Shown here in pieces: positions 12,457-64,000 of a DNA stretch of 64,000 nt. The stretch's first letter is position 1. Each line of letters starts with the position of its first letter. The position numbers and the translations under genes were made by a program. The notes below the pieces were generated by a model. That model saw only the letters and a program-made list of their open reading frames with translations. It made no database searches and was not told where the DNA came from. Source of the DNA: Lytechinus pictus (taxonomy: Eukaryota); the NCBI RefSeq assembly GCF_037042905.1, contig NC_087251.1, positions 25,918,001 through 25,982,000 on the forward strand, in the 5' to 3' direction.

Positions 12457-14050
12457 TCATTCTTGATTTTTCCTTTTACAGTAATATGGAGGCAAGCACA
12501 ATCTAAGCAGTTTGTAAACGAGATACATTATTGTCAAAATTAAAGAAGTTATCACCAAAATCACATCTAATAAATAATACTGAATAAACGATAAGTCGTG
12601 GGCAGGGGATCGCATGTAGCTTAGCACCATGTTTGATGACGTGCTCAATCCAAAAAGCTGCTCGATCAGGGGCTGTCATTGGCCGGTCTTTGAAAATAGC
12701 CGAGGCACGCTTCACGTTCTTACTGTACTCTGGATTCTGCAGAGCTTCTGTCAGGGTTTGGTAGATGTAGTTAGCGCTCAACTGCATCTTGTCAAGGGTG
12801 GTACCTAGTCTCATTGTCTTGACCTTTATGGAGATGTCGATCTGGTCACCAACTAGGGGCATGATGACGAGAGGAACACCATGATAGACTGCTTCGAGGA
12901 AGCCATTGTTGCCACCGTGATAGACCAAGAGACGAGTCTTAGGGTGACCAAGAATATCCTGGAGGGGAAGCCATGGCAGCACTTTGATGTTTTCAGGTTT
13001 TTCCTCTAGGGAATCTGCTTCTAGATGAACCAACACCTTGTGAGGCAAACGACCAAATGCCTCCAGGAAAACTTGAGTGAGCTCAGGTTTAGACTTAGTT
13101 AGCTGTGTGAAACTTGAACCAAGAGAGAAGACAACGACTCCTCGCTCTCCAGAACTTTGCATTAAGTTTTCCAATTCATCATTCAAAGGTCTAGCTGCTC
13201 TTGTCGTTAACCCACCGACAGGGATGATGTTTGGCGTTAAGGAATACGGGAACTCAACTGCGAATTCGGTGTTGATGAGATAAAGATTGACTTCATCCTT
13301 AATAGAGCTTTTTATACTCTGATCCAGGCTGTATGTGTCTGCTATTTCGTAATAGGGCCTCTCAACCAAGATATGACTAAATAAGTTACCTACCAGGTAG
13401 GCCATAGTATTGATGACGCGTTCCAAGAACGTCATGTTACAGGACAGTCTTGTGTTAGACATAGGTTGATATGAAAGGTGAACTGGTGATCCAGCAAGCT
13501 GCTGTACGTATACGTTCGTCGCAGTCGGTGAAACAAGGACTCCGTGAACTTGTTTGTTCATTTATTTCGAGAGGAACGACTTAACATAGATCCCGCATGG
13601 CCAAAACACATCACCAACAACGACGTCCATCTTTTCCAATCGTTTCATGAGCTTCTTGTCGCTAAATATTGCCTCGCAAATCTGACGATTTAGATTCGCA
13701 AACAACGATACCAAAACAATCATTTGACTAAGGTGGCCATCGGCGAAAACCAAATCATTTACTTGTTTGTTCAAGTGAACTAATTCTCGATCCAGATTTT
13801 GATAAATGTAGCGTTCAAACTTGAAATATTCCGTGTATTCCGTCTGATCGTAGTTATCACTCATAATATCATTGATTAGAAACGTCACCTCATGACCACG
13901 ACCAACAAGGCTTCTTCCTATAGGAATCAGGGCCGTCATGTGACTAGGCGCTCCATAAAACCCGATGAACAAAACTTTGGCACTATCGCAGAATGTGAAA
14001 CTTCCAACCAATAGACATACAAGAAACACGAAGTAGTCTTTCAGAGCCAT
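12457..14050 (-). pseudogene. Intronless UDP-glucuronosyltransferase (GT1/UGT family), disrupted by an in-frame TAA (13564-13562) and a +1 frameshift (about 12621)
   Basis: Signal peptide MALKDYFVFLVCLL, catalytic-His region GAPSHM, UGT signature WLPLQDILGHPKTRLLVYHGGNNGFLEAVYHGVPLVIMPLVGDQ, then RAAFWIEHVIKHG. The C-terminal IQYYLLDV, TM helix and basic tail are in a shifted frame. Confidence 0.85.
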
Positions 14051-16060
14051 TGTGCGTATAATGTCATAGGGTTTGTTTCGTAAATGGAACTGCAATCTCG
14101 ATCGATGTTGCTTTTCTGTGCATTGAGCATCAGGTTTGTGATATTGTAAAATAGTCCTGGCTCGACAAGAAACTAATTTGATTTTTCCATTTTCACACAT
14201 ATCATCCGGAGATCTGTCTTTATAAACCACTCAGAGACATATTCAATAGCGTTATTTTTACTATCCATTAATGAAAGAAGCGCGATGTCTGAAAATATCT
14301 GAAGTTTTATAATAACTTGTTTATAAAGAAAACGCATCCGGTTTGCAGGTCAGACAGGAATCGCTTTCTTCCTTATCGATTGACCATCTGGTATAGAGCG
14401 TTCACCTTGGCTGCTTATGAATTATGATAGAGGAAAAATCATGTAGAAATCTCCGATGTTTGATGCACATATTTATTATTCATCCCCCCCCCAACATTAT
14501 GATGACTGCTTATGGTAACCATGGTAACGATATGTAGGCGTAGAAACAGGGTCATCAGGAAATGAATGATGGATAGCTAGGGGAGCTGGGGCGGGAACCA
14601 TCATAAACATGTGTACCTCCAAGCTCTGTTTCGAATTTTAAAATTGGTGAATACTGTTATACCATGTCATACTCGTAAACTAACTCAAGACCGACCAAGC
14701 TAAGTTTCTTGTAATAATATACCATCGGTTTCGTTGATGTGATTGTTGCATAAATGAGGGCACAAAACACACATCATTTTTAAGTGGCATATGACATAGG
14801 CCTACATCATCAGTGTGGGAGGAGGAGACAAGTGCACGTGGTATACAATTCTGCCAATCAACCTGCTTTTTGCACGTGGGTACAATTTTAATGAAGTTGT
14901 CAGATCTGACTAATATTCAGTAGCCGTGTTGATGAGCTACATATTAATATTGTTTGGGGAGAAACTTGGGACTTTTAAACCTGTATGCAATAGCATTGAA
15001 GGGGATTTAAAGTCCTCCTCTCAGAAATAAATGTCATTTAGTTTCATGCTAGTGAGCGTAGCGACCGAGCAAGATAATTTGCCGCAATATACTGTGAAAC
15101 TTTGCATTTTCTCACTAAGATATCGGGGTTTATGCCGTGTTGCCTTTCAAACTTTAGACTTCATTTCATACATTTGTATGTGAGCAAGATAATTTCAAAT
15201 GGTGAATCTTAGCATCATGGCGCACTGTACAACATTAAATTGCAAATAGCAGATATTCTTATTAGACATATTATAAGCTTAATCTGTTCCCGTTCTAGTT
15301 TCCAAAACATCAGTTCTTTCCAAAAGTTTTAAGAGCATGCGTCTCCAGTTGGCCTACTTTCATTCCGACGCCCTTTACAATGTTTACTGTATTTAGAATT
15401 TTACAAGAAAGTATTTGGTTCATTTATTTTTGTAGTTAAACTCTTCAGAAATTTTTACTCAAATTGCGCGGGCGATTATAAATGGAGCATTGAATTCACT
15501 GCTTGATTGATGTTGCGTAACTTCGGAACACTGGCATACAGTTGGGGGCATGCCCCCCATCCCAAAAGTTTCACGACCAATATGAAAAAAAAAAGAGAAC
15601 AGGAAGGGGAAGCGTGAAATGTGGTATTATTTTGTGAACATAATATCTGAAACTTTGATTTTTTTTTTGTATATAAAGGTCTAAATTTTTGCTCAATCCG
15701 CCATATCTGATCCTCTTTTCTTTGGCTAATTACGCCACTTCTTTGGAATGATGGGGGTGAGAAGGGGAACATGATTGAACAAATATGGTCCGTGTACGCC
15801 GGTTGACGGCTCCCAAACGGTATCACATCTCTCAATACTTTTTGGGTTGTAGTTTAATTTGCTTACAAGAGACACACACACATTGTACGAATGATAGACG
15901 AGGAAAATATCTGTGGAAAAATAAACACAAAACTTTTAATTTCGTCGTCGTATTTCTACACTGGACCGTGCCCCCCTCCCACCCCCCCCCCCCGAATGCG
16001 ATGGTAATTGCTCCGCAAATACTTTTAACATAATATATCAAAAAGAAGCATCGAGTATCT

Positions 16061-23164: not shown

Positions 23165-23680
23165 TACATATCCCTACTGTGCACTGATGAGTTGAAGTTG
23201 TTATTCTAGGGCAAGTTCCTAGATCCATATCAGGTTCTTTGTTCTTATGAAATGAGGACATATCCCTCCTGTGCGCTGATGAGTTGAAGTTGTTGAACAA
23301 TAGCTTCTATGATGTGGCTTCTTCTGGGGCAAGTTCTTAGATCCATGTCAGGTTGTTTGTTCTTATGTGATGAGGACATATCCTTATTGTGTGCTGATGA
23401 GTTAAACAATAGCTGCAATTATTCTGCATCTTCTTGGGCAAGTTCCTAGATCCATATCAGGTTTTCTATGACATGGGGACATATCTTCACTGTGTGTTGA
23501 TGAATTGAACAATACCTGCTGTCCAGTTTCTCTACAGCAGGTTCCTATATCCATATCGGCTTATTGGATCTTATTTTGATGGGGACATATCCTTCATTGT
23601 GTGCTGATGAGTTGAACGATAGCTGCAATTATTCGGCTTCCTCTTGGGCAAGTTCCTAGATCCATATCAGGCTGTTGAAT
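23165..23680 (-). repeat. Four degenerate tandem copies (about 100-120 bp) of the DHX57 terminal coding segment in its 3' UTR, plus the intact copy
   Basis: Repeated GGACATATCC..TGTGTGCTGATGAGTTGAA..GGGCAAGTTCCTAGATCCATATCAGG, matching the last exon. Confidence 0.85.
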
Positions 23681-29600: not shown

Positions 29601-32600
29601 GCAGTCTCGCCTGCATTACGCGATTTAATATAGCAGCAGTGCTAACTTTGAAAACTACAATAAAATAATCATTCACAAAAACACCATTCATATAATGACA
29701 TAATACCACGTTCATTGACCATAAATGACATTTGAACGGTGACTTAAGACTTGTCAACTACACCCATGTCCACATTTCATTCACTCTATCCATAAACTTC
29801 AAAGTTATGATGGCAATTCAACAATTACCCCAACATGGCCTAAGTTTATTGACCTTAACTGACCTTTGACCTTGGTTTTGTGACCTGAAACTCACAGGGG
29901 ATGTTCAGTTATACTTGATTACTCTTATATCCCAAGTTTTATGAACTAGATCTATAAACTTTCAGAGTTATGATGGTAATTCAACAAATACCCCCAACAT
30001 GGCCAAAGTTCATTGACCTTTAATGACCTTTGACCATGGTCATGTGACCTGAAACTCGTACAGGATGTTCAGTGATACTTGATTACTCTTATGTCCAAGT
30101 TTTATGAACTAGATCTATAAACTTTCAGAGTTAGGATGGTAATTTAACAAATACCCCCAACACGCCCAAAGTTCATTGACCTTAAATGGCCATTGACCAT
30201 GGTCATGTGACCTGAAACTCGCACAGGATATTCAGTGGTACTTGATTAACCTAATGTCCAAGTTTCATGAACTAGATCCATAAATTTTCAAAGTTATGAT
30301 GGTAATTCAACAAATACCCCCAACTTGGCCAAAGTTCATTGACCCTAAATGACCTTTGACCTTGGTCATGTGACCTGAAACTCAGGCAGGATGTTCACTC
30401 ATACTTGATTAACCTTATGTCCAAGTTTCATGAACTAGATCCATAAATTTTAAAAGTTATGATAGTAATTCAACAAATACCCCCAACTTGACCAAAGTTC
30501 ATTGACCCTAAATGACCTTTGACCTTGGTCACGTGACCTGAAACTCAAGCAGGATGTTCACTAATACTTGATTAACCTTATGCCCATGTTTCATGAACTA
30601 GGTCCATATACTTTCTAAGTTATGATGTCATTTCAAAAACTTAACCTTAGGTTAAGATTTGATGTTGACGCCGCCGCCGTTGCCGTCGGAAAAGCGGCGC
30701 CTATAGTCTCGCTCTGCTATGCAGGCGAAACAAAAATTACCATTTCATTGTCAGATGATGCAATGGAGCTCTGAGGAGTTAGTTTCTCTTACCTTGTAAG
30801 CCCTTAACAGTGTCAGGTGATCACTATTACCAATAGCAAACTCTTGTCGCTTTTTATCTGCCTGGTCTCGTTTGTCAAATGGTGCCATCTAAATGGAAAT
30901 TAAAGACAAAGATAATAATGTGAAGTGATGAGGAAATGCACATATTACAATCTATACAATTAGCCTTAATTCGAACACATATTTCAGTAATCAATAATGA
31001 TAACTGAAATTATGCTACCTTCACTTTGTTATAGGAGTGTATTATATTTTTAATTTCATTTATTTCCTATTCTCATAATGAAAATAAAATCATTGGTATG
31101 CACAAAAAAATATATGAACAATAAAAAGAATCAACATAGAGGCTTCTCAGTACAACATATATCTTTCACAGGGATGTGTTTGGTCCTGAAATGGACCACC
31201 AAAACTCAATGATATGGCAAAGTATATTCTTGCCATCTTCAGGGGGAAAATAAAGAATATTGGGGACCCAGCAGAGAGTTCCAAGTATTGAAATCAAATA
31301 TACAAAAGGGAATAGAGAGAGGTGGGGTGATCATGTGAAAAATAACTGTTGAATACACTTACGAATGGTGATCTAAAGCTGAGACTTGCTGCGATGGTTA
31401 GGACTGGGTCAAGGCACTGGAAGATGGCTCCAAAGAGCATCAGCTTACCGATCCTAACATCTACCGGAAGAGATGCAAGATGGTAGCCCAGAGATGTCAG
31501 ATCCTAAAAGAAAGAGAAAGACGGTAACATTTTGATGGCTTGGGTAAGGATACAAGTGCATATCATGAGACATTGTTGATGTTGTACATAATAGACACAG
31601 TATTTAAACAATGATGATGAGGGTGACAAATTTCATTTAGGCCTATATCAATATTTCTATTTTGTTGGCTGATATTTTTATTTTATTATTTTATCACAAT
31701 TCATGCTCACACCAAAAATGTGCAACATAGAGAGATACAATCAATATGTTCCATTAACAGTAGTTTTTTTGTGCATGGTTTGCCATAGGCTAACAAAGTA
31801 CAGTCATGCTTAATTGTACATTCAATTTTTTTTTTTTACTAAGCACACACATGGGACTACAACTACAATAATTTGACCCATTTGATAGATGCTTGCATTT
31901 TTGCTATGTATATACTAAAGCCTTGCCACAGAACACAGCTGACTGTATTAAAGTCTAGTACTGGGATCTTCTATTAAAAAAAAATCCCTAGACGTCCCCA
32001 AGATGCTGGCATCAGAATAACATGAGGATAAACACCACTGTACTTTAAAGACATTCCAGAAAATCTTTACCAAAATGCAAATCATGTCATGCTTGTCATG
32101 AATGTGATTTCTCTCAGAGTTCAAATCTCTTGATACATAGTGTTATGAAAACAAATTAAAACATAACAAACATCTGTTGAAGCATGCATCAGAATGTCAA
32201 TTCCTACATGGTTGGAAATATGATTACAGTAGAAGGGATCTCGGAAGCTTTCCTATGCATCTCATGATAGGGGAGAAAGAGTTCTTTCTTCTTTGAACTG
32301 AGCATTCTTCATAGGCCAACAGAATAAATCATCTATCAAAAAAATGGCAGACAACAAATGGAAAGAACTTGCTACCTATCACAGGGAGGCCACTCATGGC
32401 ATCTTTAGTATTGCCCCATCCTTGCAAATCAAACAGATTTGAGAAGTGGGCTAGTATTGATTGGCAATGCCATGTTGTTAGTTCCTCTCAACAAAGCATC
32501 TCGATAGCTGCTACTATGCCACGTGTATTTGCATATTTTGTTTTTGATCAATCCTAGAATCATATAGAATCAAATCAATCAGACAAATTTGACTAAAATC

Positions 32601-48066: not shown

Positions 48067-49036
48067 AACAAGTGGAATGCCTCTGGCGGTCTCACCTGAC
48101 CTGCATCACTCGATTCAATATATTAGCAGTGCTGACTTTCAAAACTACTATAAAATAATTATTCACAAAAAACACCATTCATATAATGATACAATACTAC
48201 GTTCATTGACATTTGACCTTGATCATGTGACCTAAAACTTGTCAGTGATACTTGATTACCCCTATATCCACATTTTATACACTATATCTATAAACTCTGA
48301 AAGTTATGACAGCAATCTAATGATTACCTCTAAAATGGCCAAAGTTCAATGAACTTAAATGACCTTTGACATTGGTCATGTGACCTGAAACTTTGATGGG
48401 ATCTTGATTTCTCTTATGTCCAAGTTTCATGAATCAAATCCATAAACTTTCAAAGTTATTATGGTAATTCATCAGATACCCCCCATATTGCCAAAGTTCA
48501 TTGACATTTGACGTTGGTCATGTGACCTGAAATTCGCAAAGGATGTTCAGTGATACTTGATTACTCTTATGTCCAAGTTTTATGAACTAGACCAATAAAC
48601 TTTCAAAGTTATGATGGTAATTAAACAAATACCCCCAACTTGGCCAAAGTTCATTGACCTTACATGACCTTTGACCTTGATCATGTGACCTGAAACTCAC
48701 ACAGGATGTTCAGTGATACTTGATTACTCTTATGTCTAAGTTTCATGAATCAGATCCATAAACTTTTAAAGTTATGATGGTAATTCAACAGATACCCCCA
48801 ATTTGGCCAAAGTTCATTGACCCTAAATGACCTTTGTCATGTGACTTGAAACTCAGGCAGGATGTTTAGTAATACTTGATTAACCTTATGGCCAAGTTTC
48901 ATGAACTAGGTCCATATACTTTCTAAGTTATGCTGTCATTTCAAAAACTTAACCTTCGGTTAAGATTTGGTGTTGACGCCGCCGCCGTCGGAAAAGCGGC
49001 GCATATAGTCTTACTCTGCTATGCAGGTGAGACAAT
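48067..49036. mobile_element. Second HINE/DINE-1-like element, same family as 29582
   Basis: Start AACAAGTGGAATGCCTCTGG, internal units of about 150-165 bp, end GACGCCGCCGCCGTCGGAAAAGCGGCGC..GCTATGCAGGTGAGAC. Confidence 0.75.
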
Positions 49037-50312
49037 AACTTTTTTTGATCTGTTGATGGATTTAACTTAAACCTTCACCAATATTTTTCATTACTTTTTC
49101 TTTGATTTTATAGTTTTACAATAAACTTTTTATCAGGGTTAACCATGAACTTCCCTTTTAAAGGAAACCAAAACCCAAGAAGAGAAGCAATCTTATTGGA
49201 AATAGTAAAATGAGTTCATCAAAATCGGTTATGAAATCAGCTAGTTATGGAATTTTGAAAAATCTACTTGTAGGATGGGGGGTCGGGTGTCCGGACACTT
49301 TATATTTTTGAAGCCTTTTTTTGTCTTTGGATTACATGAAAAAAAAAAGAATTCAATAGTTGTAATCATCTTCTATTTTGTTCTCTAATTTCCTAACATT
49401 TTGTACTAAAAAATGATGAAACTTTGCTTGTAAATTTTTCCAAATGACTTTCTAAAATTGATCGTCCGAACACACAACCTGTCCGGACACACAACTGGCA
49501 GACTGGGTATACTTTCTATGCCTATATGGATATGGGGATTCTCAAATTGGCAAACATGCTTCAAAATGGCTGATTTTGTGGACATTTCTACGTAAAGAAT
49601 GGAAATTTTAATCAATTTTCGTAATCGTGAACAGGATAGCTATATAACTAAACCATGTATAATTTGATGCGAGCGCGATGCGAGCGCGAAGCGCGAGCGG
49701 AAAAAAAATCGAGATTTAGACCTAAAAACGGGACACTCTATTCACGTTTTGTAAATCATGAAAAGAATGAGTAATAGGGGATCTTCGTACATTAATAATG
49801 CGAGCACAAAGCGCGAGCAGAAAATTTTTGATATTGTGATTTTAAACTGGAAAATGATTTAAATTAAGAGAACAAGTTGAGTATCTGAATAAACATACGC
49901 GCGTGTTTCATATTTAGACCTAAAATCTAGGCATTCTAAATAATCTTTTATCATGAAAATCAAAGTGAGCGCGAGCTTAAACTATTTGATATTCCGATCT
50001 GAAAAGAGTTTTTTATAGGACTGGGACATCCTTAGGACATGTCATCTTATGAAAATATTGACTGTCTTCCTATTCCTCTTGCTAAGCGCGAGATGAAACA
50101 ATTAAAAGGGACAATTTGATTATTTAATTGATATCTTATTCATTAATGCCTAATGAGGGCACGAAATCTGATGATATTATGGCCTGAAAACTGGACATTC
50201 CAAGCACTTTTGTAATTATAAATAGGATGCAAGTTAATATATTTAAATCATTAAAGCGAGCGCAAATTGTGAGCCTATTTTTTTATACACTGTCATGAAA
50301 AGGGGATTTTAA

Positions 50313-50903
50313 AGGTCAAGTCCACCCCAGGAAAATGCTGACTTGAACAAATAGAGAAAAATCAAACTAGCATAATGCTGAAAATTTCATCAAAATCGGA
50401 TGTAAAATAAGAAAGTTATGACATTTTAAAGTTTCGCTTATTTTTCACAAAACAGTGATATGCACGACTAGGTGAGTCAGTCAATGATGTCCATCACTCA
50501 CTATTTCTTTTGTTTTTTATTGTTGAAATTATACAATATTTCATTTTTTATAGATTTAACAATAAGGACCAACTTGACTGAACCATATAGTATAAAACAA
50601 TGCTAATTCTACATGTTCAGGGAGTAATTAATCGTTGTATCACTTGACAATGAGGAGAAAATTAGAATATATCATATTTCATACAATAAAATACAAAAGA
50701 AATAGTGAGTGGATGACGTCATAGTCTCCTCATTTGCATACCAGCCAGGATGTGCATATAACTGTTTTGTGAAATTAAGCAAAACTTTAAAATGTCAGAA
50801 CTTTCTTTTTTTACATCCGATTTTGATGAAATTTTCAGTGTTATGCTTGTTGGATTTTTCTCTTTTTATATAAATCAACTTTTTGTTGGGGTGGACTTGT
50901 CCT
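50313..50903. mobile_element. Kolobok-like MITE with long imperfect TIRs, inserted into an older GCGAGCGCGAAGCGCGAGC-rich element
   Basis: TTAA|AGGTCAAGTCCACCCCA ... TGGGGTGGACTTGTCCT|TTAA. TTAA TSD with RR..YY termini, and more than 150 bp of internal inverted similarity. Confidence 0.85.
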
Positions 50904-51053
50904 TTAAGTAGTTTGTTGTATAATCAATATTGAGACAACACAACCTGACAACTCGCCAATCAAAATGCAAGCGTGCAGCGCGAGCTGATACGTTTTTACA
51001 ATGAGACCTGAAGAGCGATATTTTGAAAATTTTAGGGAATACACGAAAATAAA

Positions 51054-51699: not shown

Positions 51700-54391
51700 G
51701 CAAGATAAATCAAAATTTGCGAGCGCGCAGCGCGAGCAGAAACTTTAATATTCAGACCATAAAACTGACATTTTTACCACTCCTAGTACCAATGAGGTCC
51801 AACATTACATGTATGGACCTCATAGGCGACATCAGTAGTATTTTTGGTTAGAAATCTCTGAGAACAGGATATTTAAACATTATATCACAAGTACAAGCTA
51901 TAATTCCTTTCTCTTATTTAAATTATAATTTTATAGTGTAAATGCATCGTTAGCAACAACAAAAAATGAAAGAAATGAAGGGGAACTTACATTTTCACCG
52001 GTATTTTATAGATGGCAAATATAGCGATCTTCAACGCTTATATATAAGCGTCGAAATTTGTAGCCATCTCCTTGTATTAGTCTATATTATACGACGTGTC
52101 AAATTGTAGCGAACTAGTTCGCTATTTCCAGATCTCCTCTATATATATATACACGACGGGAAATTGTAGCGAACTAGTTCGCTATTTTCCAGATCTCCTG
52201 TATATACATACGATGGGAAATTGTAGCGAACTAGTTCGCTATTTTCCAGATCTCCTCTTAACGACGGGAAATTGTAGCGAACTAGTTCGCTATTTTCCAG
52301 ATCTCCTCTATATACAGCCATCTCCTTGTATTAGTCTATATTATACGACGTGTCAAATTGTAGCGAACTAGTTCGCTATTTCCAGATCTCCTCTATATAT
52401 ATATACACGACGGGAAATTGTAGCGAACTAGTTCGCTATTTTCCAGATCTCCTGTATATACATACGATGGGAAATTGTAGCGAACTAGTTCGCTATTTTC
52501 CAGATCTCCTCTTAACGACGGGAAATTGTAGCGAACTAGTTCGCTATTTTCCAGATCTCCTCTATATACATACGATGGGAAATTGTAGCGAACTATAGTT
52601 CGCTATTTTCCAATTCTCCTCTATGTATACGATGGGAAATTGTAGCGAACTAGTTCGCTATTTTCCAGATCTCCTCTATATATATATACACGACGGGAAA
52701 TTGTAGCGAACTAGTTCGCTATTTTCCAGATCTCCTGTATATACATACGATGGGAAATTGTAGCGAACTAGTTCGCTATTTTCCAGATCTCCTCTATATA
52801 TATATACACGACGGGAAATTGTAGCGAACTAGTTCGCTATTTTCCAGATCTCCTATCGCTATTTTCCAATTCTCCTCTATGTATACGATGGGAAATTGTA
52901 GCGAACTAGTTCGCTATTTTCCAGATCTCCTCTATATATATATACACGACGGGAAATTGTAGCGAACTAGTTCGCTATTTTCCAGATCTCCTGTATATAC
53001 ATACGATGGGAAATTGTAGCGAACTAGTTCGCTATTTTCCAGATCTCCTCTTAACGACGGGAAATTGTAGCGAACTAGTTCGCTATTTTCCAGATCTCCT
53101 CTATATACATACGATGGGAAATTGTAGCGAACTAGTTCGCTATTTTCCAGATCTCCTCTATATATATACGACGGGAAATTGTAGCGAACTAGTTCGCTAT
53201 TTTTCGGATATCCTCGATATATACGACGGGAAATTGTAGCGAACTAGTTCGCTATTTTCCAGATCTCCTCTATATATATACGACGGGAAATTGTAGCGAA
53301 CTAGTTCGCTATTTTTCGGATATCCTCGATATATACGACGGGAATTTGTAGCGAACTAGTTCGCTATTTTCCAGATCTCCTCTATATACATACGACGGGA
53401 AATTGTAGCGAACTAGTTCGCTATTTTTCGGATCTCCTCGATATATACACGATGGGGAATTGTAGCGAACTAGTTCGCTACAATTCCAATCGTATTGTTA
53501 GAGGAGATCTGGAAAATAGCAAACTAGTTCGCTACAATTCCCCCTCGTCTATATATCGGGGGGATCCGAAAAAATAGCGAACTAGTTCGCTACAATTCCC
53601 ATCGTATATATAGGCCCTAGAGGAGATCTGGAAAATAGCGAACTAGTTCGCTACAATTCCAATCGTATATATCGAGGAGATCCGAAAAATAGCGAACTAG
53701 TTCGCTACAATTCCCACTGGTGTATATATCGAGGAGATCTGGAAATAGCGAACTAGTTCGCTACAATTTCCCCTCGTCTATATATCGAGGAGATCCAAAA
53801 TAGCGAACTAGTTCGCTAAAATTCCAATCGTATATATCGAGGAGATCCGAAAAATAGCGAACTAGTTCGCTACAATTCCCACTGGTGTATATATCGAGGA
53901 GATCTGGATATAGCGAACTAGTTCGCTACAATTTCCCCTCAGGCGCGGATCCAGGAGGGGGCCGAGCCGGCCCCGGCCCCCCCTATTTTTTGACAACCTG
54001 CAGAAAAAGTGTACTCTTTAACTTGATAGAAACTATGAAAAACAGAAAGAAAAGTAAGAAAGAGGTATCATACCCATGATGTGTAATTTACAACCTCGTA
54101 ACGGCCGGCCAACCCCGAAAGGAAACAATAAAAGGGTGAAGGGGAGAATTAGAAAATAAACTTTATATAAAAAATTTCGCTCGCGCTTCGCGCTCGCATT
54201 GATTGTGTAATGAATCCCATTCAAGAGGATTAAATGGCACTTATACATCCAGATCTGAAATCAATTTTGCACACAATATTTTAGCTCGCACATCAAGCTT
54301 TATTATTTTGTCTGTTTTACACAAATTGTTTATATCAAAGTTTTCAGCTCGCGCTGCGCGCTGGCATTGTTTGATTTGTGAGTTACCTATC

Positions 54392-55885
54392 CACTGGCGT
54401 AAATCCGTGTTGATGGGAGGGGGGGATGACTGAAATATTTTGGCATTTTTTTTGCAATCATGTTTTTAGATATGCAAGGAATTGCCATTGATATGTCCAC
54501 GGTGGCGTACCATGGGTCACGGCATGGGGGGGGCACCAGCAAAAATTTTGAATCACTGAGTGAGTGCGCTAGTGAGCGCGCTCAGTTGCCAGTTATACTG
54601 ACCTAATAGAGACATTTTAAGGACAATGTCATTAAATTGATATGTATCTCACTGATCAAATAATGCGAGCGCGAAGCGCGAGCTGAAATTTTTTCATATT
54701 CACACCTAAAAAGGGACATTATAATCAAATTTGTGTAATCATGATAGGTACCTGTCTCGGTAAACAATGCGAGCGCGAAGCGCGAGTTGAAAATTTAGAT
54801 AATTCAGACCTGAAGTGGGGCATTCTAAGGTTTTTTGTAAGAATTAACTAGGACCATACGTATTTCATTAACCAAATGATGCGAGCGCGAAGCGCGAGCT
54901 GAAAATTTTTGATATTCCGATCAGAAGGGACATTTTAAGGGCTGATTTTAAAGGAATTTATGAAAAGCAGACATATCTCACCAATCCACTAATGCGAACG
55001 TAATCACGGACATGAAATGTTTCATATATACGAAGACCTTAACATGGGGCAATCACTTTTTGAGTCGTGAAAAAGAAGCATATGTCACTACATAAAACAA
55101 TGATAACTCAAGTGCTAGGAAATATATTTGGTTTATATTGAGTTGAAAACGGGATGTTTTAGTACAACAGGATTATATATTACGTTAAACAGACAATGCG
55201 AGCACCAGGAACAATGAAGACGTAGGCCCTGGGCAAATTATGTTTCATAAAGTTATGATAAATATGTTTCTTATGTAATGTAACATAACATAATTATAAT
55301 ATAATATAACATTATAATGAATAATATTTTCTTCTTTCCCACTACATTTCTCTTCCTTTCTCCCTCTTTTCTCCTTTCCCCTTTCCCCGTTTTGTTTTTT
55401 TGGTCAGCCGATGGGGGGGGGGGGGGATGTGCCCCCCATGCCCCCCGTAGTTACGCCACTGTATGTCCATATGGCAAATACCCCTCCAATATTATTATCT
55501 TTTTTACCCCATGATGGTTTAATGGTTTTATTAGAGATTACATTAAAAAAATGTTGACATTCCATCTTAATCCCTTCCCAAAGACCCCAACATTGATGAA
55601 TTGGAAGAAACAGGGGTTTCTCTTCAATGTTATAATAAGGACATAAGTATTTCGTTTGGAAATGGTGAACTGGCTCTTTATTTGCATTTTATGATTCAAT
55701 AATATTGTTTTATTTGTTAAGCGGTATTTTAGGAAGAATTTTCACCAATAAAATAATTATCTCTTGTGATTTTTTTTTAATTTCTTTCGTAAAAAGTGGG
55801 GGGGATGTTTGTACAGGCCATCCCCCCCTCCTCGAAAAGTGGGGGGGATATATCCCCCCCATCCCCCCCGGGATTTACGCCAGTG
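54392..55885. mobile_element. Nested hAT-type MITE with 8-bp TSD
   Basis: TIR CACTGGCGTAAATCC / GGATTTACGCCAGTG, TSD TACCTATC. Confidence 0.9.
54500..55461. mobile_element. Innermost nested hAT-type MITE with 8-bp TSD
   Basis: TIR CGGTGGCGTA / TACGCCACTG, TSD TATGTCCA. Confidence 0.88.
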
Positions 55886-56247
55886 TACCTATCCTCTGGA
55901 AATTCTTACCAAAATATGTCAAAATTCTCCTTTATCATGTCAGTTTATAAAAGAAAATGAGCTCGTGCTTCGCGCTCGCATTTAATTATTTGAGAAACAC
56001 AGCTTTTTCTGTATTTAAATAAAAACGCGCTTAGACTGTCCAGTTTTCAGGTCGGAATATCAAAAATTTTGAGCTCGCACTTCGCACTCTCATTATTTAA
56101 TTGGTGATACTTGTATCCTTTTCATTAATCACTAAAAACAGTCCTAATTGAGTCCCTTTTCACGTTACTATGATAAAATTTAGGCTCGCGCTTCGCGCTC
56201 GCGTTGTTTAGTTGGATACTTATCTTTTTTCATAATTATAATTATCT

Positions 56248-56469
56248 TGGTGGTGATTTTTTTGGTGGTGATTTTTTTACCTGATTGCTAAGAAAGCATG
56301 AATGCTTGTAAGCAAGCAACCAGAGGACCGACGGCTTAAGGTCCCCTCCGAAGGACCTGGTACTGAGGATTAATGCCTTACCAAAGGGCACTAGCGCACC
56401 AAGTGGGAATCGAACCCGGGTTACCGGAATACGAGTCCCCCGCTCTACCGACTGAGCTCTCTCGCCTCC
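56248..56469 (-). mobile_element. tRNA-derived SINE of a second family, inside the 53940 element
   Basis: Reverse complement GGAGGCGAGAGAGCTCAGTCGGTAGAGC (A box)..GGTTCGATTCCC (B box)..GTGCCCTTTGGTAAGGCA, ending in a short tandem-repeat tail. Confidence 0.8.
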
Positions 56470-57279
56470 TCAGAATCTTCAGGTCTAAGGACATGAAATA
56501 TCAAAGAATTTGAGCTCGCGCTTCGCGCTCGCATTATATATTAAGACCACACGAGATACCTTATCTTGTTTATAATAATAAAATTAACATATACTTAAAA
56601 CTTCAGTCTCTCGTTAGGACTACCCCCTAAAAAACCGAAAAAATCAGATTATAGCGGCCAATCGAGAAAAACGTTGATAAAAATATTTTTCGGCCCCCCC
56701 CTATTGGCGAAAGCTGGATCCGCCCCTGCCCCTCGTCTATAATCGAGGAGATCCGAAATAGCGAACTAGTTCGCTACAATTCCCACTGGTGTATATATCG
56801 AGGAGATCTGGAAATAGCGAACTAGTTCGCTACCATTTCCGCCCGTCGTGTATATACAGGAGATCTGGAAAATAGCGAACTAGTTCGCTACAATTTCCGC
56901 CCGTCGTGTATATACAGGAGATCTGGAAAATAGCGAACTAGTTCGCTACAATTTCCCGTCGTATATATATATATAGAGCAGATTTGGAAATAGCGAACTA
57001 GTTCGCTACAATTTCCCGTCGTTAAGAGGAGATCTGGAAAATAGCGAACTAGTTCGCTACAATTTCCCATCGTATGTATATACAGGAGATCTGGAAAATA
57101 GCGAACTAGTTCGCTACAATTTCCCGTCGTGTATATATATATAGAGGAGATCTGGAAATAGCGAACTAGTTCGCTACAATTTGACACGTCGTATAATATA
57201 CACTAATACAAGGAGATGGCTACAAATTTCGACGCTTATATATAAGCGTTTAAGATCGCTATATTTGCCATCTTATAAT

Positions 57280-57775
57280 TTCCCCATTTTCACGGCTTTT
57301 TCCTGATTTTCTGGGCAGCTGCTCTTCTCTTCTGACTCGCGATCGAAGCTGATATGAAGATCACGTGATTCGCGTTCTCGTCAGCTGATCGGTTGGTTAT
57401 TCTTTTCGTCAGACGTTTATAATGCTAGCATTCATCGCTAATTTAGGTGGAAGAGATTGAAGTTAAACAGCGCCAGGTCGGAATCATAATTATTTTGGAA
57501 GAGTGTATTTATACACTCGATCTCATACCTGACGTAGACGGCGCTATTCAACAAATGCACAATCTTCAATATAAAAAATAAAACAGAAAGAACGCCTTGA
57601 ACACAGGCCAAAATGCCTAACGATTTCTCCGCGGCATTAACAACTATCGTAAAGGGCGCTCCATTTATCAATAAAGATGGACGCTAAGCTGTCTATGGCG
57701 ACAAAATTTGCCGCAAATATTTACGAAGAATTGTGAGAAATGGTCTGAAAATGCAACAAAAGAACCGGTGAGTAC
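57280..57775. promoter_or_regulatory. Probable bidirectional CpG-rich promoter (DHX57 leftwards, unknown gene rightwards with first-exon donor CCG|GTGAGT at 57768)
   Basis: CpG-enriched unique sequence with CTCGCGA, E-box ATCACGTGAT, TGACGT and ATGGCG motifs, plus a strong + strand donor. Inference only. Confidence 0.5.
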
Positions 57776-58033
57776 CGATTAAACATTATTAAATTTGTAA
57801 ATAGATTATACATACCTTGTAGATTTAGTTTTTAAGGTGATATTAGTGCTTAGTTCTAAGCTAGGGAGGCCCAAACGCGCGTGAGTGGAGTCCCAGTTTA
57901 TTAGCACGGGTAAGTATTGGGGTGTCGCCTAGAGTGATTTTTACAGAGCACTTTTTAAAAATCACACAAAATAATGAAAGTTCGATTTCCGAGATGAAAT
58001 ATGTTTTGTATATTGACTTCCAAACTCTATAAT

Positions 58034-58489
58034 CAGTAGAGGCGCACGGCCAATATTGGAGACTATCTCCAATGTGGGAGATTATCTCCAATATCAGAGA
58101 CTTTTTGTAAAGAATTTTGGTATCCAATTTTAGAGACAGTCTCCAGTTTTGGAGTCCAATTTCCTTTGTTTACATTTGCTGCAAAAGGATTACCTTGGCC
58201 GCTTGGCGGCAAATAAAAATGTGATAAGCAGATTCCTCATAAAAAATTACCCCTTTTCACCGTCTACTTTAAAAATTCACCGTCTACTTTTGTTTTGATA
58301 AGGATTTTTGTTGTCAATCACACACAAAACAAATGGGCTTCTGACCTCAGTGAGACAAAATTTTGGGTGGAAAAAATCATGCTTTTGTTGGTGTTGTTTC
58401 TTTTGTCCTCTTGCAAAGCAAGTCTCCAATGAGGGAGATTGTCTCCCCTATTGGAGAGAGTCTCCCATATTGGCCGTGCGCCTCTACTG
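58034..58489. mobile_element. MITE with 23-bp perfect TIR and 5-bp TSD
   Basis: CAGTAGAGGCGCACGGCCAATAT / ATATTGGCCGTGCGCCTCTACTG, TSD ATAAT, subterminal GGAGAC..TCTCCA motifs. Confidence 0.9.
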
Positions 58490-59374
58490 ATAATCCATAT
58501 TGAACAAGATATAAAAATCACCTAACACTAGTAACAGGCAATACGAGCGCCAAGCTCGAGCAAAATTTTACATATTATAGTGACATGAAAGATTCTTTTT
58601 ATTTTCCAAGTCTTCCCCTCATCTTAATTCTTGTTTTATTTACTCATCTTCCTCCATGCAGAGCTTCTTTTTTCTCCTCTCTTTTCCCTCCTTTTTCCTT
58701 TTTTTTTCTTTCCTTTTTTCTTTTTTTTGCTCCACCAATAGGGGGGGGCGGGCCCCTCGGGCCCCCCCTGGATCCGCCTATGACATACCGGTACCGGTAT
58801 GTCAAGGTCAGGAGATAGGGAGAAATAAAAAATAAATGAAAATGATTTTAATAAAAAAAAAAACTACATGAAAGTTGAAACAGACGGCTGCCAGCTGTCT
58901 AACGTTAGACTTACCGGTACGGTCGGTACCTGACTGTACTTGCTGGACTTGGATCTAGACTAGAGTCTATTATTAAACGTTACGATCTAACTTGGTGCCT
59001 TTCTAATTTTTTCTAAATTTCTGTCTCCCCTGCGCGTCCCTGATGACGTTATTGCAACAGCGCCTAACTTAACTTCACACGCACACAGCCGATTGCCATT
59101 GCGCTATACCCATTAACCTCCCCACCACATCTGCTGCCCCCGTATGGAACGCGGAAAGGCTAAAATTTGATCACTGTCACTTTTGATTTGATGGACCTCC
59201 GTACCAGCCATCATCAAATCAAGTGCAGCCATCAGTAAATCAAAAGTGGCCATCATCATATCAATTTTAAGCATCATATCCCTCTGTACCAGCCATCATC
59301 AAATCAGTTTCTAACATCAAATCAATGTTGTCCTTTCGGCGTTCCTGATGTGCGCGCCAAAAGGACACCTGTAA

Positions 59375-61137
59375 GTTGATGGCAGCCACTTTTTATTTGA
59401 TGACGGTTACTTTTGACTTGATGACGGCCACTTTTTATTTGATGACGGTTACTTTTGACTTGATGACGGCCACTTTTTACTTGCTTTTTATTTGATGACG
59501 GTTACTTTTGACTTCATGACGGCCACTTTTGACTTGATGGCGGCTGCTTTTGATTCGATGATGGCTGCTTTTGATTTGATGATGGCTGCTTTTGATTCGA
59601 TAGTGGCCACTTTTGATTTGATGATGGCTGCTTCTGATTTGATGATGGTTGCTTTTGATTCGATAGTGGCCACTTTTGAACTGATGATGGCCACTTTAGA
59701 TTTGATGATGGTCACTTTCAATTTTTTTATCGCTTTTCATTTGATGGTCACTTTTTGTTTGATGGTCACTTTTTATTTGATCACTTAATTTGATGGTCAC
59801 TTTTTATTTGATGGTCACTTTTTATTTGATGGTCACTTTTCATTTGATGGTCACTTTTCATTTGATGGTCGCTTTTAATTTGATGGGCACCTTTTATTTG
59901 ATGATCACTTATTTGATGGTCACTTTTAATTTGATGGTCACTTTTAATTTGATGGTCACTTTTAATTTGATCATCAATTCTTATTTGATGGTCACTTTTA
60001 ATTTGATGGTCGCTTTTTATTTAATGGTCACTTTTTATTTGATGGTCACTTTAAATTTGATGGTCACTTTTTATTTGATGGTCATTTTTAATTTGATGCT
60101 CAGTTTTTATTTGATGGTCACTTTTAATTTGATGGTCGCTTTTTTGTTGCTCACTTTTTATTTGATGGTCACTTTTAATTTGATGGTCACTTTTTATTTG
60201 ATCATCACTTTTTATCTGATCATCACTTCTTTGACGGTCACTTTTTATTTGATGGTCACTTTTTATTTGATGCTCACTTTTCATTTTATGCTCATTTTTC
60301 ATTTGATGCTCACTTTTAATTTGATGATAGATTTTTATTTGATGGTCACTTTTTATTTGATGGTCGCTTTTAATTTGATGGGCACCTTTTATTTGATGAT
60401 CACTTATTTGATGGTCACTTTTTATTTGATGGTCACTTTTTATTTGATCATCACTTTTTATCTGATCATCACTTCTTTGACAGTCACTTTTTATTTGATG
60501 GTCACTTTTTATTTGATGCTCACTTTTCATTTGATGCTCACTTTTTATTTGATGGTCGCTTTTTATTTGATGGTCACTTTTTATTTGATGGTCACTTTTA
60601 ATTTGATGGTCACTTTTTTGTTGGTCACTTTTTATTTGATGGTCACTTTTTATTTGTTGGTCACTTTTTATTTGATGGTCACTTTTTATTTGATGGTTAC
60701 TTTATATTTGATGCTCATTTTTTATTTGATGATCACTTTTTATTAGATGATCACTTTTTATTTGATCATCACTTCTTTGACGGTCACTTTTTATTTGATG
60801 GTCACTTATTATTTGATGCTAACTTTTTATTTGATGCTCACTTTTAATTTGATGGTCGCTTTTTATTTGATGGTTATTTTTTATTTGATGGCTACTTTAA
60901 ATTTGATGATCACTTTTTATTTGATGGTTACTTTTTATTTGATCGTCACTTCTTCTTTGATGGTCACTTTTCTTTTGATCGTCGCTTTTCATTTGATCAT
61001 CACAATTTAAGTTGATGGTTTCGGCATTCCATACATGGTCGCTTTATATTTGATGGTCGCTTTTCATTTGATCGTCGCTTTTATTTGATCGGCACTTTTC
61101 ATTTGGTCGTCGCTTTTCATTTGATCATCACTTTTTA
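59375..61137. repeat. Minisatellite: 21-bp units grading into 18-bp units (TTTGATGGTCACTTTTTA)n
   Basis: Direct reading. Generates the repetitive LMVTFY / KSDHQI ORFs. Confidence 0.95.
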
Positions 61138-64000
61138 CAGTACGTGCGCATAAACGTGTCGCAGTGAGCATGCACTGAGCAAATCCTCATGTACGTATAG
61201 CTAGCGCGCTCTTTTTGCTTCCGAGAATTGAAGTGCAGGTGCATATATATGAATCTATTGATCGTGAAAAAATAAATCTGGAAAATGGAGGGTATACTTA
61301 ATAGTTTAGGGATGCCTCAATCAGTTATTAACAACTTTCAACGGGAAGGGGTAAGTTGAAGTTAGAATTTACTTAGATCTAGACCTACGCTTTAGATCTA
61401 ACTTTGTTTGTCTATTTTGTTGGTGTGAAACGGTACTATAGGCCTTGGCCTAGGCCCTACTCCCTCACAACATTGTCACTGGGGCGTTGCACTGGGGCCT
61501 ATGCTCTAGTATAGACCGGCTAGGCTAGGGCCCTATATATAAGTGTCACTAGGCCTAGTCACTAATAAGCCTAGACCAACCTGACTCCATTGTTGAGAAC
61601 TGTGCTAGTAACTTAGTGTTAGAGCCAGAGCTACACACGAAACCCATGCAAATGCAGAAAAAATACAGTTAGTGTTCAGTTCTTAAATATTTTCAGATCT
61701 CTAGACCCTAATAATATTAATTTTAGCTGATGATTGGCATTGCCCATTTTGCAAATGCAGCGCGGCGGGGGCAGAGGGAGGGGGTAACACTAACGAGTAA
61801 CGTTGAGTCTTATCCATTGTAGTTATACACTCAAGCCTAGCGCCTATAACATACAGTTCAATTGTTACTGTTAACCCCCTACCCTCTACTCCTGCCCCCG
61901 TTGTGTTGAAGAAAACCTTTTTTTTTTTTTTTTTTTTTTTGCTATAGGCTATTCATATTTATATATATATATATAAACAAGGCCATAGATATGAATAACA
62001 ACAAACCGAGTCGCCCTTTTCCAAAACTCCCAACCCCCCTCCCCCCATAAAAATTTGTTGCGTCTATTATTGGGCTTATTTTCTTTTTACCCAAAATTAA
62101 GGGGGGGGGCTGCGTGCGCAACCTCCCAACCCCCTTGGCGACGGTCATGCAGTTGACCCACAGAAATTTAGAAAATTTATATTTTTCTTGCAAAAATGCA
62201 TAAAATTTACAAAAAATTGTGCAACAAATCCTTCAAGTTCTGCTCGATTGCTTCGCTCCCTCACTTTCGAATAGGGTCTATTTTTGAAAATTGCAAGAGT
62301 TTTTAACAATGATGGGATGAGGATGTTTTAAACACTCTATCAAAAGTAGGTTCAATTTTGCACCTTTACCAATGTCACACATGGAACACATTTAATGATG
62401 CAAATTTGCACCTTTCAGAAAAGAAATCACCTTAAAAGGTACAGCTTAATTGCACCTATTTTTCTGAAAGGTGCAAATTTGCATCATTAAATGTGTTCCA
62501 TGTGTGACATTGGTAAAGGTGCAAAATTGAACCTACTTTTGATAGAGTGTTTAAAACATCCTCATCCCATCATTGTTAAAAACTCTTGCAATTTTCAAAA
62601 ATAGACCCTATTCGAAAGTGAGGGAGCGAAGCAATCGAGCAGAACTTGAAGGATTTGTTGCACAATTTTTTGTAAATTTTATGCATTTTTGCAAGAAAAA
62701 TATAAATTTTCTAAATTTCTGTGGGTCAACTGCATGACCGTCGCCAAGGGGGTTGGGAGGTTGCGCACGCAGCCCCCCCCCCCCCCTTAATTTTGGGTAA
62801 AAAGAAAATAAGCCCAATAATAGACGCAACAAATTTTCTGGGGGGAGGGGGGTTGGGAGTTTTGGAAAAGGGCGACTCGGTTTGTTGTTATTCATATCTA
62901 TGGCCTTGTTTATATATATATATATAAATATGAATAGCCTATAGCAAAAAAAAAAAAAAAAAAAAAAAGGTTTTCTTCAACACAACGGGGGCAGGAGTAG
63001 AGGGTAGGGGGTTAACAGTAACAATTGAACTGTATGTTATAGGCGCTAGGCTTGAGTGTATAACTACAATGGATAAGACTCAACGTTACTCGTTAGTGTT
63101 ACCCCCTCCCTCTGCCCCCGCCGCGCTGCATTTGCAAAATGGGCAATGCCAATCATCAGCTAAAATTAATATTATTAGGGTCTAGAGATCTGAAAATATT
63201 TAAGAACTGAACACTAACTGTATTTTTTCTGCATTTGCATGGGTTTCGTGTGTAGCTCTGGCTCTAACACTAAGTTACTAGCACAGTTCTCAACAATGGA
63301 GTCAGGTTGGTCTAGGCTTATTAGTGACTAGGCCTAGTGACACTTATATATAGGGCCCTAGCCTAGCCGGTCTATACTAGAGCATAGGCCCCAGTGCAAC
63401 GCCCCAGTGACAATGTTGTGAGGGAGTAGGGCCTAGGCCAAGGCCTATAGTACCGTTTCACACCAACAAAATAGACAAACAAAGTTAGATCTAAAGCGTA
63501 GGTCTAGATCTAAGTAAATTCTAACTTCAACTTACCCCTTCCCGTTGAAAGTTGTTAATAACTGATTGAGGCATCCCTAAACTATTAAGTATACCCTCCA
63601 TTTTCCAGATTTATTTTTTCACGATCAATAGATTCATATATATGCACCTGCACTTCAATTCTCGGAAGCAAAAAGAGCGCGCTAGCTATACGTACATGAG
63701 GATTTGCTCAGTGCATGCTCACTGCGACACGTTTATGCGCACGTACTGTAAAAAGTGATGATCAAATGAAAAGCGACGACCAAATGAAAAGTGCCGATCA
63801 AATAAAAGCGACGATCAAATGAAAAGCGACCATCAAATATAAAGCGACCATGTATGGAATGCCGAAACCATCAACTTAAATTGTGATGATCAAATGAAAA
63901 GCGACGATCAAAAGAAAAGTGACCATCAAAGAAGAAGTGACGATCAAATAAAAAGTAACCATCAAATAAAAAGTGATCATCAAATTTAAAGTAGCCATCA
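60886..64000. repeat. Large near-perfect inverted duplication (arms 60886-62422 and 62460-64000, right arm cut by the window edge; 37-bp spacer)
   Basis: The right arm is the reverse complement of the left. The only differences I noticed are G9 vs C14 (about 62101/62773) and ATAAAAA vs AGAAAA (about 62047/62839). Confidence 0.95.
62333..62549. mobile_element. Small CACT-ended (EnSpm/CACTA-like) MITE at the palindrome centre
   Basis: CACTCTATCAAAAGTAGGTTCAATTTTGCACCTTT ... AAAGGTGCAAAATTGAACCTACTTTTGATAGAGTG with repeated GCACCT motifs. Boundaries are inferred from the CACT terminus because the flanks are also symmetric. Confidence 0.6.

Follow-up and report, generated by a model that had tools for sequence, protein, structure and literature searches.

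The TU elements that Liebermann et al. reportedly described in sea urchins in 1983 are said to have a foldback structure like that of Tetris and Tm1. Tetris of Drosophila virilis consists of an outer tandem domain, an inner domain and a variable middle and has no ORF (PMC4079207); Tm1 of root-knot nematodes is a foldback element of matching anatomy (PMC3169594), and a target-site duplication of 8-10 bp is given for both (PMC4079207, PMC3169594). In maize, Mu killer (Muk) derives from a transposon by rearrangement and inverted duplication, and its transcript can form a long hairpin; the terminal repeats of Mutator serve as promoters of the element's genes (PMC8224964). The locus considered here, near the end of a 64,000-nucleotide stretch of Lytechinus pictus DNA (the window), most likely adds another instance to a class of elements already known; its palindrome is not simply host DNA that was mirrored at a MITE.

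Our preferred reading, to which we assign a probability of roughly 0.55, is that the palindrome is a real, young and non-autonomous derivative of a foldback DNA transposon, one end of which has been copied in mirror image. With Tetris and Tm1 it shares long inverted arms, a tandem-repeat outer domain followed by a unique inner domain, an apparently variable middle and a lack of coding capacity; unlike in these elements and in TU, the mirror symmetry extends here through the middle, as far as a 37-bp loop, and the middle bears an inward-facing exon with a splice donor. The likeness to the TU elements of Strongylocentrotus lies in the foldback arm architecture; a literature search for the sequence of the TU repeat unit or inner domain and for a TU domain name found nothing. 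Among the three origins offered by the preliminary description, a large foldback transposon gives the best fit, with its tandem outer domain, its short shared inner domain and the differing interiors of contigs, and this reading is favoured because the anatomy matches that of Tetris and Tm1 and because contigs branch at 61192-61195.

The palindrome of at least 3.1 kb around a 37-bp spacer that had first been described is borne out by arms at 60886-62422 (1537 bp) and 62460-64000 (1541 bp, the right arm being cut by the window end), which are 99.5% identical over 1542 alignment columns and enclose a non-symmetric loop (Table 1). The near-identity claimed even across the T23 and (TA)n tracts likewise holds, T23 and (TA)8 being of equal length in the left and right arm. 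The arms differ at two sites only: a G9 run at 62101-62109 corresponds to C14 at 62773-62786, and a substitution with a 1-bp indel, which is not a plain run-length change, distinguishes 62048-62049 from 62838-62839. The outermost 252 bp of the palindrome comprise 14 variant minisatellite units and match their mirror at 252/252 positions; since the match does not exceed 66% when these 252 bp are set against the left array in any other ungapped register, the symmetry of the arms is copy-specific and not merely that of a common satellite. Folding of the central 243 nt gives a z of -32, equalled by none of 200 shuffles.

Table 1. Features of the palindrome and its surroundings, in window coordinates.
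Feature	Position	Strand	Basis or detail
Candidate left terminus, with a 16-bp motif at 59142-59157	59137-59160	+	Inverted recurrence inside the arm
Small inverted module made up of the array's repeat family, with forward units first and 21-bp units in reverse after them	59163-59352	.	Separates the main array from the candidate terminus
21-bp minisatellite, outer part of the left terminal repeat	59376-59718	+	TRF period 21/42/63, unit list
18-bp minisatellite of about 81 units, 15-bp variants among them, forming the outer domain of the left terminal repeat	59706-61137	+	TRF, unit list
Unique inner domain (about 58 bp) of the family terminal repeat	61138-61195	+	Contigs branching at its end
Left-arm interior ('type A', 1.23 kb), which has its mirror copy in the right arm and lacks a long ORF	61196-62422	+	Symmetry, ORF list, contigs
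TCT initiator match (consensus YYCTTTYY) with C61211 as candidate start	61209-61216	+	Weak, post hoc
Twelve T>C differences, read as A>G from the opposite strand and with their mirror at 63593-63674; candidate ADAR hyper-editing	61212-61293	-	X2 record 5
Inward-facing first-exon-like unit: ATG, 22 codons, donor GGG/GTAAGT at 61351	61285-61356	+	Sequence inspection
Central unit of 217 bp, CACT...AGTG, in which an internal motif recurs; MITE-like (unproven)	62333-62549	.	Folding, motif counts
37-bp loop, with the internal 8-mer once in exact form and once, less exactly, on the other strand	62423-62459	.	Motif search; X1 record 4
Right arm, mirror of 61138-62422	62460-63748	-	Donor 63535, initiator match 63670-63677
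First part of the right 18-bp array, mirroring 60886-61137 exactly and leaving the window	63749-64000	-	Tandem-repeat and symmetry comparison

Outward, the arms continue into a 1.76-kb minisatellite of 21- and 18-bp units (59376-61137), a continuation that the preliminary description had overlooked, and this array is followed on its inner side by a unique segment of about 58 bp. Contigs of four of five public runs were compared with 61138-62510 only, which gave eight records from runs X1 (a DNA run), X2 (presumed to be an RNA run, its nature being a guess) and X3, and none from X4. X1 record 1 covers 61138-61195 and continues past the start of the compared stretch, while X1 record 3 and X2 record 7 each share 30 letters and then diverge, the former behind 61195 and the latter behind 61192. 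Branching at the end of the inner domain is thus seen in two of the eight records, from runs of two studies, and array and unique segment together look like the terminal repeat of a small TU/Tetris-like foldback family because other contigs share the end of the segment before diverging. The type A interior itself was found in X1 (records 2 and 4), X2 (records 5 and 6) and X3 (record 8), X2 holding two variants of it, of which one is exact and the other bears a 12-bp insertion. We note that the X1 contigs leave 61736-62103 uncovered and that there are no loose ends at 62333, neither of which was used as evidence, and that the X1 contig depths (11.8, 5.9, 5.5 and 3.7) are not copy numbers and fit an A-B element or a heterozygous A-A element alike.

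We infer the outer ends of the element from the 16-bp motif of the candidate left terminus, which has copies with two mismatches at 61019-61034 (minus strand) and 63852-63867 (plus strand) and a shorter inverted copy at 59334; the three matches, its own site included, compare with 0.23 expected, and none of 100 shuffles reached three. By mirror arithmetic, the right end is predicted at about 65750, beyond the window end at 64000; within the window neither a target-site duplication of the element nor a transposase was seen. Pattern scans with the array unit gave 0 loci in viral contigs and 0 in metagenome contigs, a scan of viral contigs with the inner domain gave 0 loci, and Rfam at gathering scores had 0 matches over 57000-64000. 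The array ORFs (321 and 216 aa) were discounted, since the 18-bp unit is free of stops and yields such frames as a by-product.

The arm has 24 stop-to-stop frames, the longest of 96 aa and none of note. Its first-exon-like unit of 22 codons, too short for large protein searches, had 0 Pfam and 0 PDB matches up to an E of 10, and no spliced joint from it was present in the contigs compared over 61138-62510; downstream of the splice donor lies a CTAG-rich stretch (61500-62000). The TCT initiator consensus (PMC4102762), on which the candidate start site is based, has 158 matches across both strands of the window.

Evidence bearing on a transcript comes from X2 record 5, which shows 16 differences in total, four of them unlisted and the 12 listed ones all T>C; the chance of an all-T>C pattern is about 1e-6, assuming only transitions spread by base composition. 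The change affects 12/26 T in 61212-61293 versus 0/10 T in 61169-61211 (Fisher p 0.015, with a post hoc boundary), placing the cluster in the interior and not in the shared terminal repeat. ADAR neighbour preferences are non-significant at these sites (p 0.13 and 0.056), a 5' G preceding 0/12 edited versus 5/19 unedited A (p 0.13), and 5' G avoidance is the reported ADAR direction (PMC5625713). Within the window, the only pairing partner for this interior is the mirror arm, and the left arm folded alone forms no unbroken helix longer than 10 bp. The edited contig derives from another allele or copy, as indicated by its 12-bp insertion, and X2 record 6 shows no editing; the T>C calls compare an X2 contig with the assembly. 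Bisulfite conversion, which yields C>T or G>A, was rejected as a source on account of the wrong direction of change, and reversal of CpG decay was rejected because TpG is found at 3/12 sites only. Hyper-editing also arises from sense-antisense pairing in trans in some animals (PMC9989829). Judged from the letters of this one contig, the cluster is typical of ADAR editing of double-stranded RNA and supports a real hairpin without proving one; it may reflect editing of the hairpin predicted here.

At the centre, the innermost 90 bp of each arm had been taken for the TIRs of a CACT-ended MITE. The CACT start is there, at 62333, and is a weak detail, since CACT occurs at nine places in the unique arm (1/9 followed by an A-run) and any such start would automatically have its mirror copy in a palindrome. 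The central 217 bp contain the internal 8-mer three times, a count reached by 30/5000 shuffles. Like non-autonomous CACTA/EnSpm elements, they start with CACT and repeat a short motif in both orientations; unlike these elements, whose terminal motif is CACT(A/G) (PMC11219922), they have C as the fifth base. No target-site duplication was found around the unit, its flanks being mirror images (AAA and TTT) with no direct repeats; such flanks are expected if fold-back replaced one of them and are therefore not decisive for the origin. The window contains no second copy of the central 217 bp, and a pattern scan of metagenomes with the unit gave 0 loci. On sequence grounds a MITE is thus weakly supported, and what stands of the MITE-seeded inverted duplication proposed earlier is that the mirrored interior could reasonably have originated by fold-back at the central short inverted repeat; the MITE itself is unproven.

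In a foldback element with one end mirrored, as we prefer to read the palindrome, the family terminal repeat would consist of a minisatellite array of about 2 kb and the unique inner domain of about 58 bp, with interiors that vary between members. The type A end would comprise this terminal repeat, a promoter-like stretch, a first exon and the start of an intron. Most likely, a broken or stalled strand would then have snapped back at the short inverted repeat (62333-62549) and been extended along its own arm, mirror copying thereby replacing the other interior of the element. The product would be an almost pure palindrome with a predicted length of about 6.6 kb and two terminal repeats, which a transposase acting in trans could still mobilise, and a transcript from either arm would read through the centre to form a hairpin of about 1.2 kb, an ADAR substrate. 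Set against the fold-back priming of palindromic amplification in yeast and mammals, as reviewed in PMC7999016, the locus is alike in that a short inverted repeat and its small spacer occupy the exact centre of a long, near-perfect palindrome; it is unlike in that transposon terminal repeats, rather than a chromosome break, seem to bound this palindrome, and the fold-back event is a putative one.

An assembly or library artefact would account for the palindrome if an ordinary A-B foldback had given fold-back reads at its internal short inverted repeat and the mirrored A had been joined to the similar opposite array. The restart on the opposite strand comes after no more than 37 bp, and foldback reads are called over a range of 200 bp (PMC12870357); the arms are identical over T23, (TA)8 and the 14 satellite units, with both differences at G/C runs, and they carry the same letters at 61537, where X1 and X3 differ. 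X1 moreover has one A and one other interior, the second of which (record 3) fits the outcome to be expected of a normal two-ended A-B element, and leaves the palindrome unbridged. Against this, the T>C cluster requires a complementary partner for the A interior, the window is free of N, and the loop is genomic, being present in X1 and carrying the arm's own motif. X1 record 4 runs from 7 nt of the left arm through the loop into 307 nt of the right arm, and a real palindrome is favoured because the loop is joined to the arm end in this separate library; with seven letters of left arm, the record fits a single arm with a short inverted repeat equally well. The artefact, which the preliminary description had also entertained, is weakened by the T>C cluster and the two arm differences and draws strength from the fact that none of the eight records compared over 61138-62510 bridges both arms; on balance we regard it as unlikely.

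It is quite unlikely that the A-A form with 3-kb arms is a normal foldback subfamily whose identity stems from recent transposition or arm conversion, other interiors belonging to sister subfamilies: the two A-type variants in X2 would suit such a subfamily, whereas the run of exon, donor and intron-like DNA up to a MITE-like centre suggests a truncated end and not a designed terminal repeat. An inverted duplication or triplication at the level of the host, seeded at the central repeat, would have the mirror continue into the DHX57 promoter region or a second palindromic junction. Fold-back priming at 42-229-bp inverted repeats beside a break is known to give large palindromes (PMC7999016), hairpin-primed inverted triplications have been described (bioRxiv 10.1101/2025.01.14.632981), and a perfect 24-bp palindrome lies at 58781-58804; yet all mirrored DNA seen falls within an apparent single repeat family and there is no sign of symmetry beyond the array, and we regard a host-level event as very improbable.

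If the palindrome is real, the foldback shape could arise in one step, by the mirroring of a promoter-bearing end at an internal short inverted repeat, and long double-stranded RNA would come from a defined locus next to the 5' region of the host gene DHX57, in a laboratory-type sea urchin that allows cruciform instability, small RNAs and editing to be tested; should the palindrome be an artefact, it exemplifies the type of mis-assembly to be expected at foldback elements. Like Muk, the locus shows an inverted duplication of a transposon end, here an apparent one in the assembly, and a potential long-hairpin transcript; unlike for Muk, the sole hint at the level of transcripts is the ADAR-like cluster that one contig of the presumed RNA run X2 displays. 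That the locus would be an animal counterpart of maize Mu killer, with a promoter in each arm, a perfect hairpin of about 1.2 kb, ADAR hyper-editing and small-RNA silencing of its own foldback family, seems distinctly improbable. In favour of the preferred reading, a second foldback with near-identical arm ends is located 4 kb away, at 52010-57273.

The arms of the palindrome (60886-62422 and 62460-64000) agree at 99.5% over 1542 alignment columns, which bears out the preliminary description of a structure of at least 3.1 kb; its 37-bp spacer is confirmed as a loop of that length, and near-identity extends, as had been claimed, across the T23 and (TA)n tracts, with T23 and (TA)8 of equal length in both arms. 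Only two sites differ between the arms, one being G9 versus C14 and the other a substitution plus a 1-bp indel next to a C6 run. The last 252 bp of the arm consist of satellite units that match their mirror exactly, and no other ungapped alignment register exceeds 66%. NC_087251.1 continues on both sides: other features recorded on it lie 5-7 Mb ahead of the window and as much as 22.6 Mb beyond it, which places the palindrome away from the contig end. As to its origin, the three options offered earlier (a MITE-seeded inverted duplication, a foldback transposon or a fold-back artefact) are partly supported, in that we favor, with a probability of about 0.55, a genuine foldback-family element in which the short inverted repeat at the center served to mirror one end. 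An element so formed would have a terminal repeat and an inward promoter in each arm, and its transcript would be a hairpin.

The components of the left arm are listed in the table. Most units of the arrays at 59376-61137 are 15, 18 or 21 bp in length, all multiples of three, probably as a result of triplet slippage, and with this periodicity both strands keep long frames free of stops. The 16 bp at 59142 form a motif with an inverted copy at 61019 and a mirrored copy at 63852 (three matches including the query's own site, versus 0.23 expected), and we infer that 59137-59160 is a candidate left end of the element; equal arrays would place the right end near 65750, for a total length of about 6.6 kb.

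Features of the left arm and of the neighboring gene (window coordinates)
Feature	Position	Strand	Remarks
Small inverted module of the array repeat family	59163-59352		leftward of the 21-bp array
21-bp array	59376-59718		related to the 18-bp array; leftward of it
18-bp repeat array	59706-61137		about 81 units
Unique segment	61138-61195		58 bases; inward of the array
Interior	begins inward of 61195		1.23 kb
Exon-like unit	ATG at 61285		22 codons, then donor GGG/GTAAGT at 61351
DHX57 coding exons	23597-47622	minus	

From its sequence features the interior resembles a first exon with the beginning of the intron behind it, oriented towards the center in both arms. It carries a match at 61209-61216 to the initiator consensus YYCTTTYY (PMC4102762), one of 158 across the window, and a CTAG-rich stretch (9 per 500 bp versus a mean of 1.4). 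A search of the interior for a long open reading frame and for Rfam families returned none, and the 22-codon peptide has no match in Pfam or PDB.

Contigs of four out of five sequencing runs were compared with 61138-62510, which gave eight aligned records. Record 1 of the DNA run X1 spans 61138-61195 and extends beyond the start of the compared stretch; records 2 and 3 both continue from it, the former agreeing with the window up to 61703 and the latter departing into other sequence after 61195. Record 7 of X2, a run guessed to be RNA whose study and organism label differ from those of X1, departs after 61192 into a third sequence. Because the records diverge at these points, the array and the adjoining ~58 bp appear to behave as a common terminal repeat that is followed by several different interiors. 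X1 record 4 reads through the loop, taking in 7 bases on the left-arm side and 307 on the right-arm side, and differs from the window once; the loop is therefore genomic and joined to the arm end. At 61537, X1 and the further run X3 have a common letter that is absent from both window arms.

The central 217 bp (62333-62549) open with CACT and an adjoining A-run, a combination seen at just one of the nine CACT of the unique arm, and an 8-mer occurs three times in the arm tip and loop, with one copy inside the loop (30 of 5000 shuffles reach that count, as does one of 16 other non-homopolymer arm tiles). These features are suggestive of a unit in its own right; against the earlier proposal of a MITE at the center, the flanks are mirror images of each other and the window holds no second copy. 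A MITE is plausible and unproven. Fold-back priming has been documented at inverted repeats of 42-229 bp (review, PMC7999016).

One X2 contig is exact over 61163-61449; X2 record 5 (61138-61324) has a 12-bp insertion and 16 other letter differences, and all 12 differences listed among these 16 are T>C, a pattern with a chance probability of about 1e-6 even if all changes were transitions. A T>C change on the left arm corresponds to A>G on its complement, or to A>G in the plus strand of the right arm (63593-63674). This is how A-to-I hyper-editing appears in unstranded data, and such editing is abundant in the purple sea urchin (PMC5625713). A 5' G precedes none of the 12 T>C sites versus 5 of 19 unedited sites (p 0.13) and a 5' U precedes 6 of 12 versus 3 of 19 (p 0.056), both in the expected direction and not significant. 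The changes affect 12 of 26 T in 61212-61293 whereas the 10 T of 61169-61211 are all unchanged (p 0.015 with a boundary set post hoc), and the mirror arm is the sole pairing partner of 61212-61293 within the window. The cluster is compatible with a transcript starting near 61211, running through the center and self-paired back to its start site, then unpaired. Against this reading, the cluster is carried by a single contig, with no matching DNA, from another allele or copy.

This distribution bears on the somewhat unlikely alternative that fold-back reads, for which criteria have been described (PMC12870357), generated the palindrome at a genuine element with different interiors at its two ends. 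The two arms are not bridged in X1 record 4 under the 31-letter rule, and this record is compatible both with a full palindrome and with one arm that has a short inverted repeat at its tip. An element with two interiors, however, would be expected to pair within its shared terminal repeat rather than in its interior, the opposite of what the cluster shows. Convergent promoters of such an element could alternatively supply sense-antisense pairing, which in trans gives editing in some lineages (PMC9989829). Less likely again, identical interiors at both ends would be the ordinary form of one subfamily, and an inverted duplication at the host level, for which a basis is found in bioRxiv 10.1101/2025.01.14.632981, is the least probable origin.

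TU elements are presumably similar in build to the element described here. Judged by its modular organization (a terminal repeat with variable interiors), it appears to be built like the foldback elements Tetris (PMC4079207) and Tm1 (PMC3169594). In maize, Mu killer is derived from MuDR by inverted duplication and silences its family through a hairpin transcript (PMC8224964); the resemblance is in a possible mode of action, and the evidence at the present locus is confined to its shape and an indication of double-stranded RNA. The literature searched for these comparisons does not list the element.

A second foldback at 52010-57273, with 57-bp units and outer ~290 bp that are 99% complementary, indicates that such elements occur near the palindrome. 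Its ~57-bp unit has an 18-bp palindromic core, its left arm exceeds the right in length, and both flanks carry TTATA (or TAT), which may represent a target-site duplication. Within it lies a 2.8-kb insertion (53940-56728) whose inverted ends are of the GGATCC type and which is bordered on each side by the 5-bp direct repeat CCCCT; it seems to hold further nested repeats. Smaller elements are found at 58029-58494 (75-bp inverted ends, 84%) and 50309-50907 (MITE-like, 136-bp inverted ends, 87%).

The window encodes a Gemin6 C-terminal domain, a UDP-glycosyltransferase and an RWD/CCCH exon with 97% identity to DHX57 of Lytechinus pictus. Human DHX57 has GEMIN6 on one side and a head-to-head MORN2 on the other. 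The CpG-rich segment 57300-59160 has strong splice donors in both orientations (+57768, +57910, -57528, -57815, -58914). The DHX57 5' UTR exon probably lies in it, as does the beginning of a divergent gene, an intron of which might enclose the palindrome. Weak additional matches to the last DHX57 residues at 23269-23467, directly downstream of the final exon, may be incomplete duplicates of that exon's end, and two arrays of one common 163-bp repeat (29766-30627 and 48242-48932) lie in DHX57 introns. The UDP-glycosyltransferase gene (12503-14230, minus strand) is visible as two long frames, the 3' one of which ends in sequence no longer UGT-like, perhaps owing to a frameshift or intron. A perfect 24-bp palindrome with a donor-like site on each strand is located at 58781-58804, 350 bp before the candidate left end of the element.
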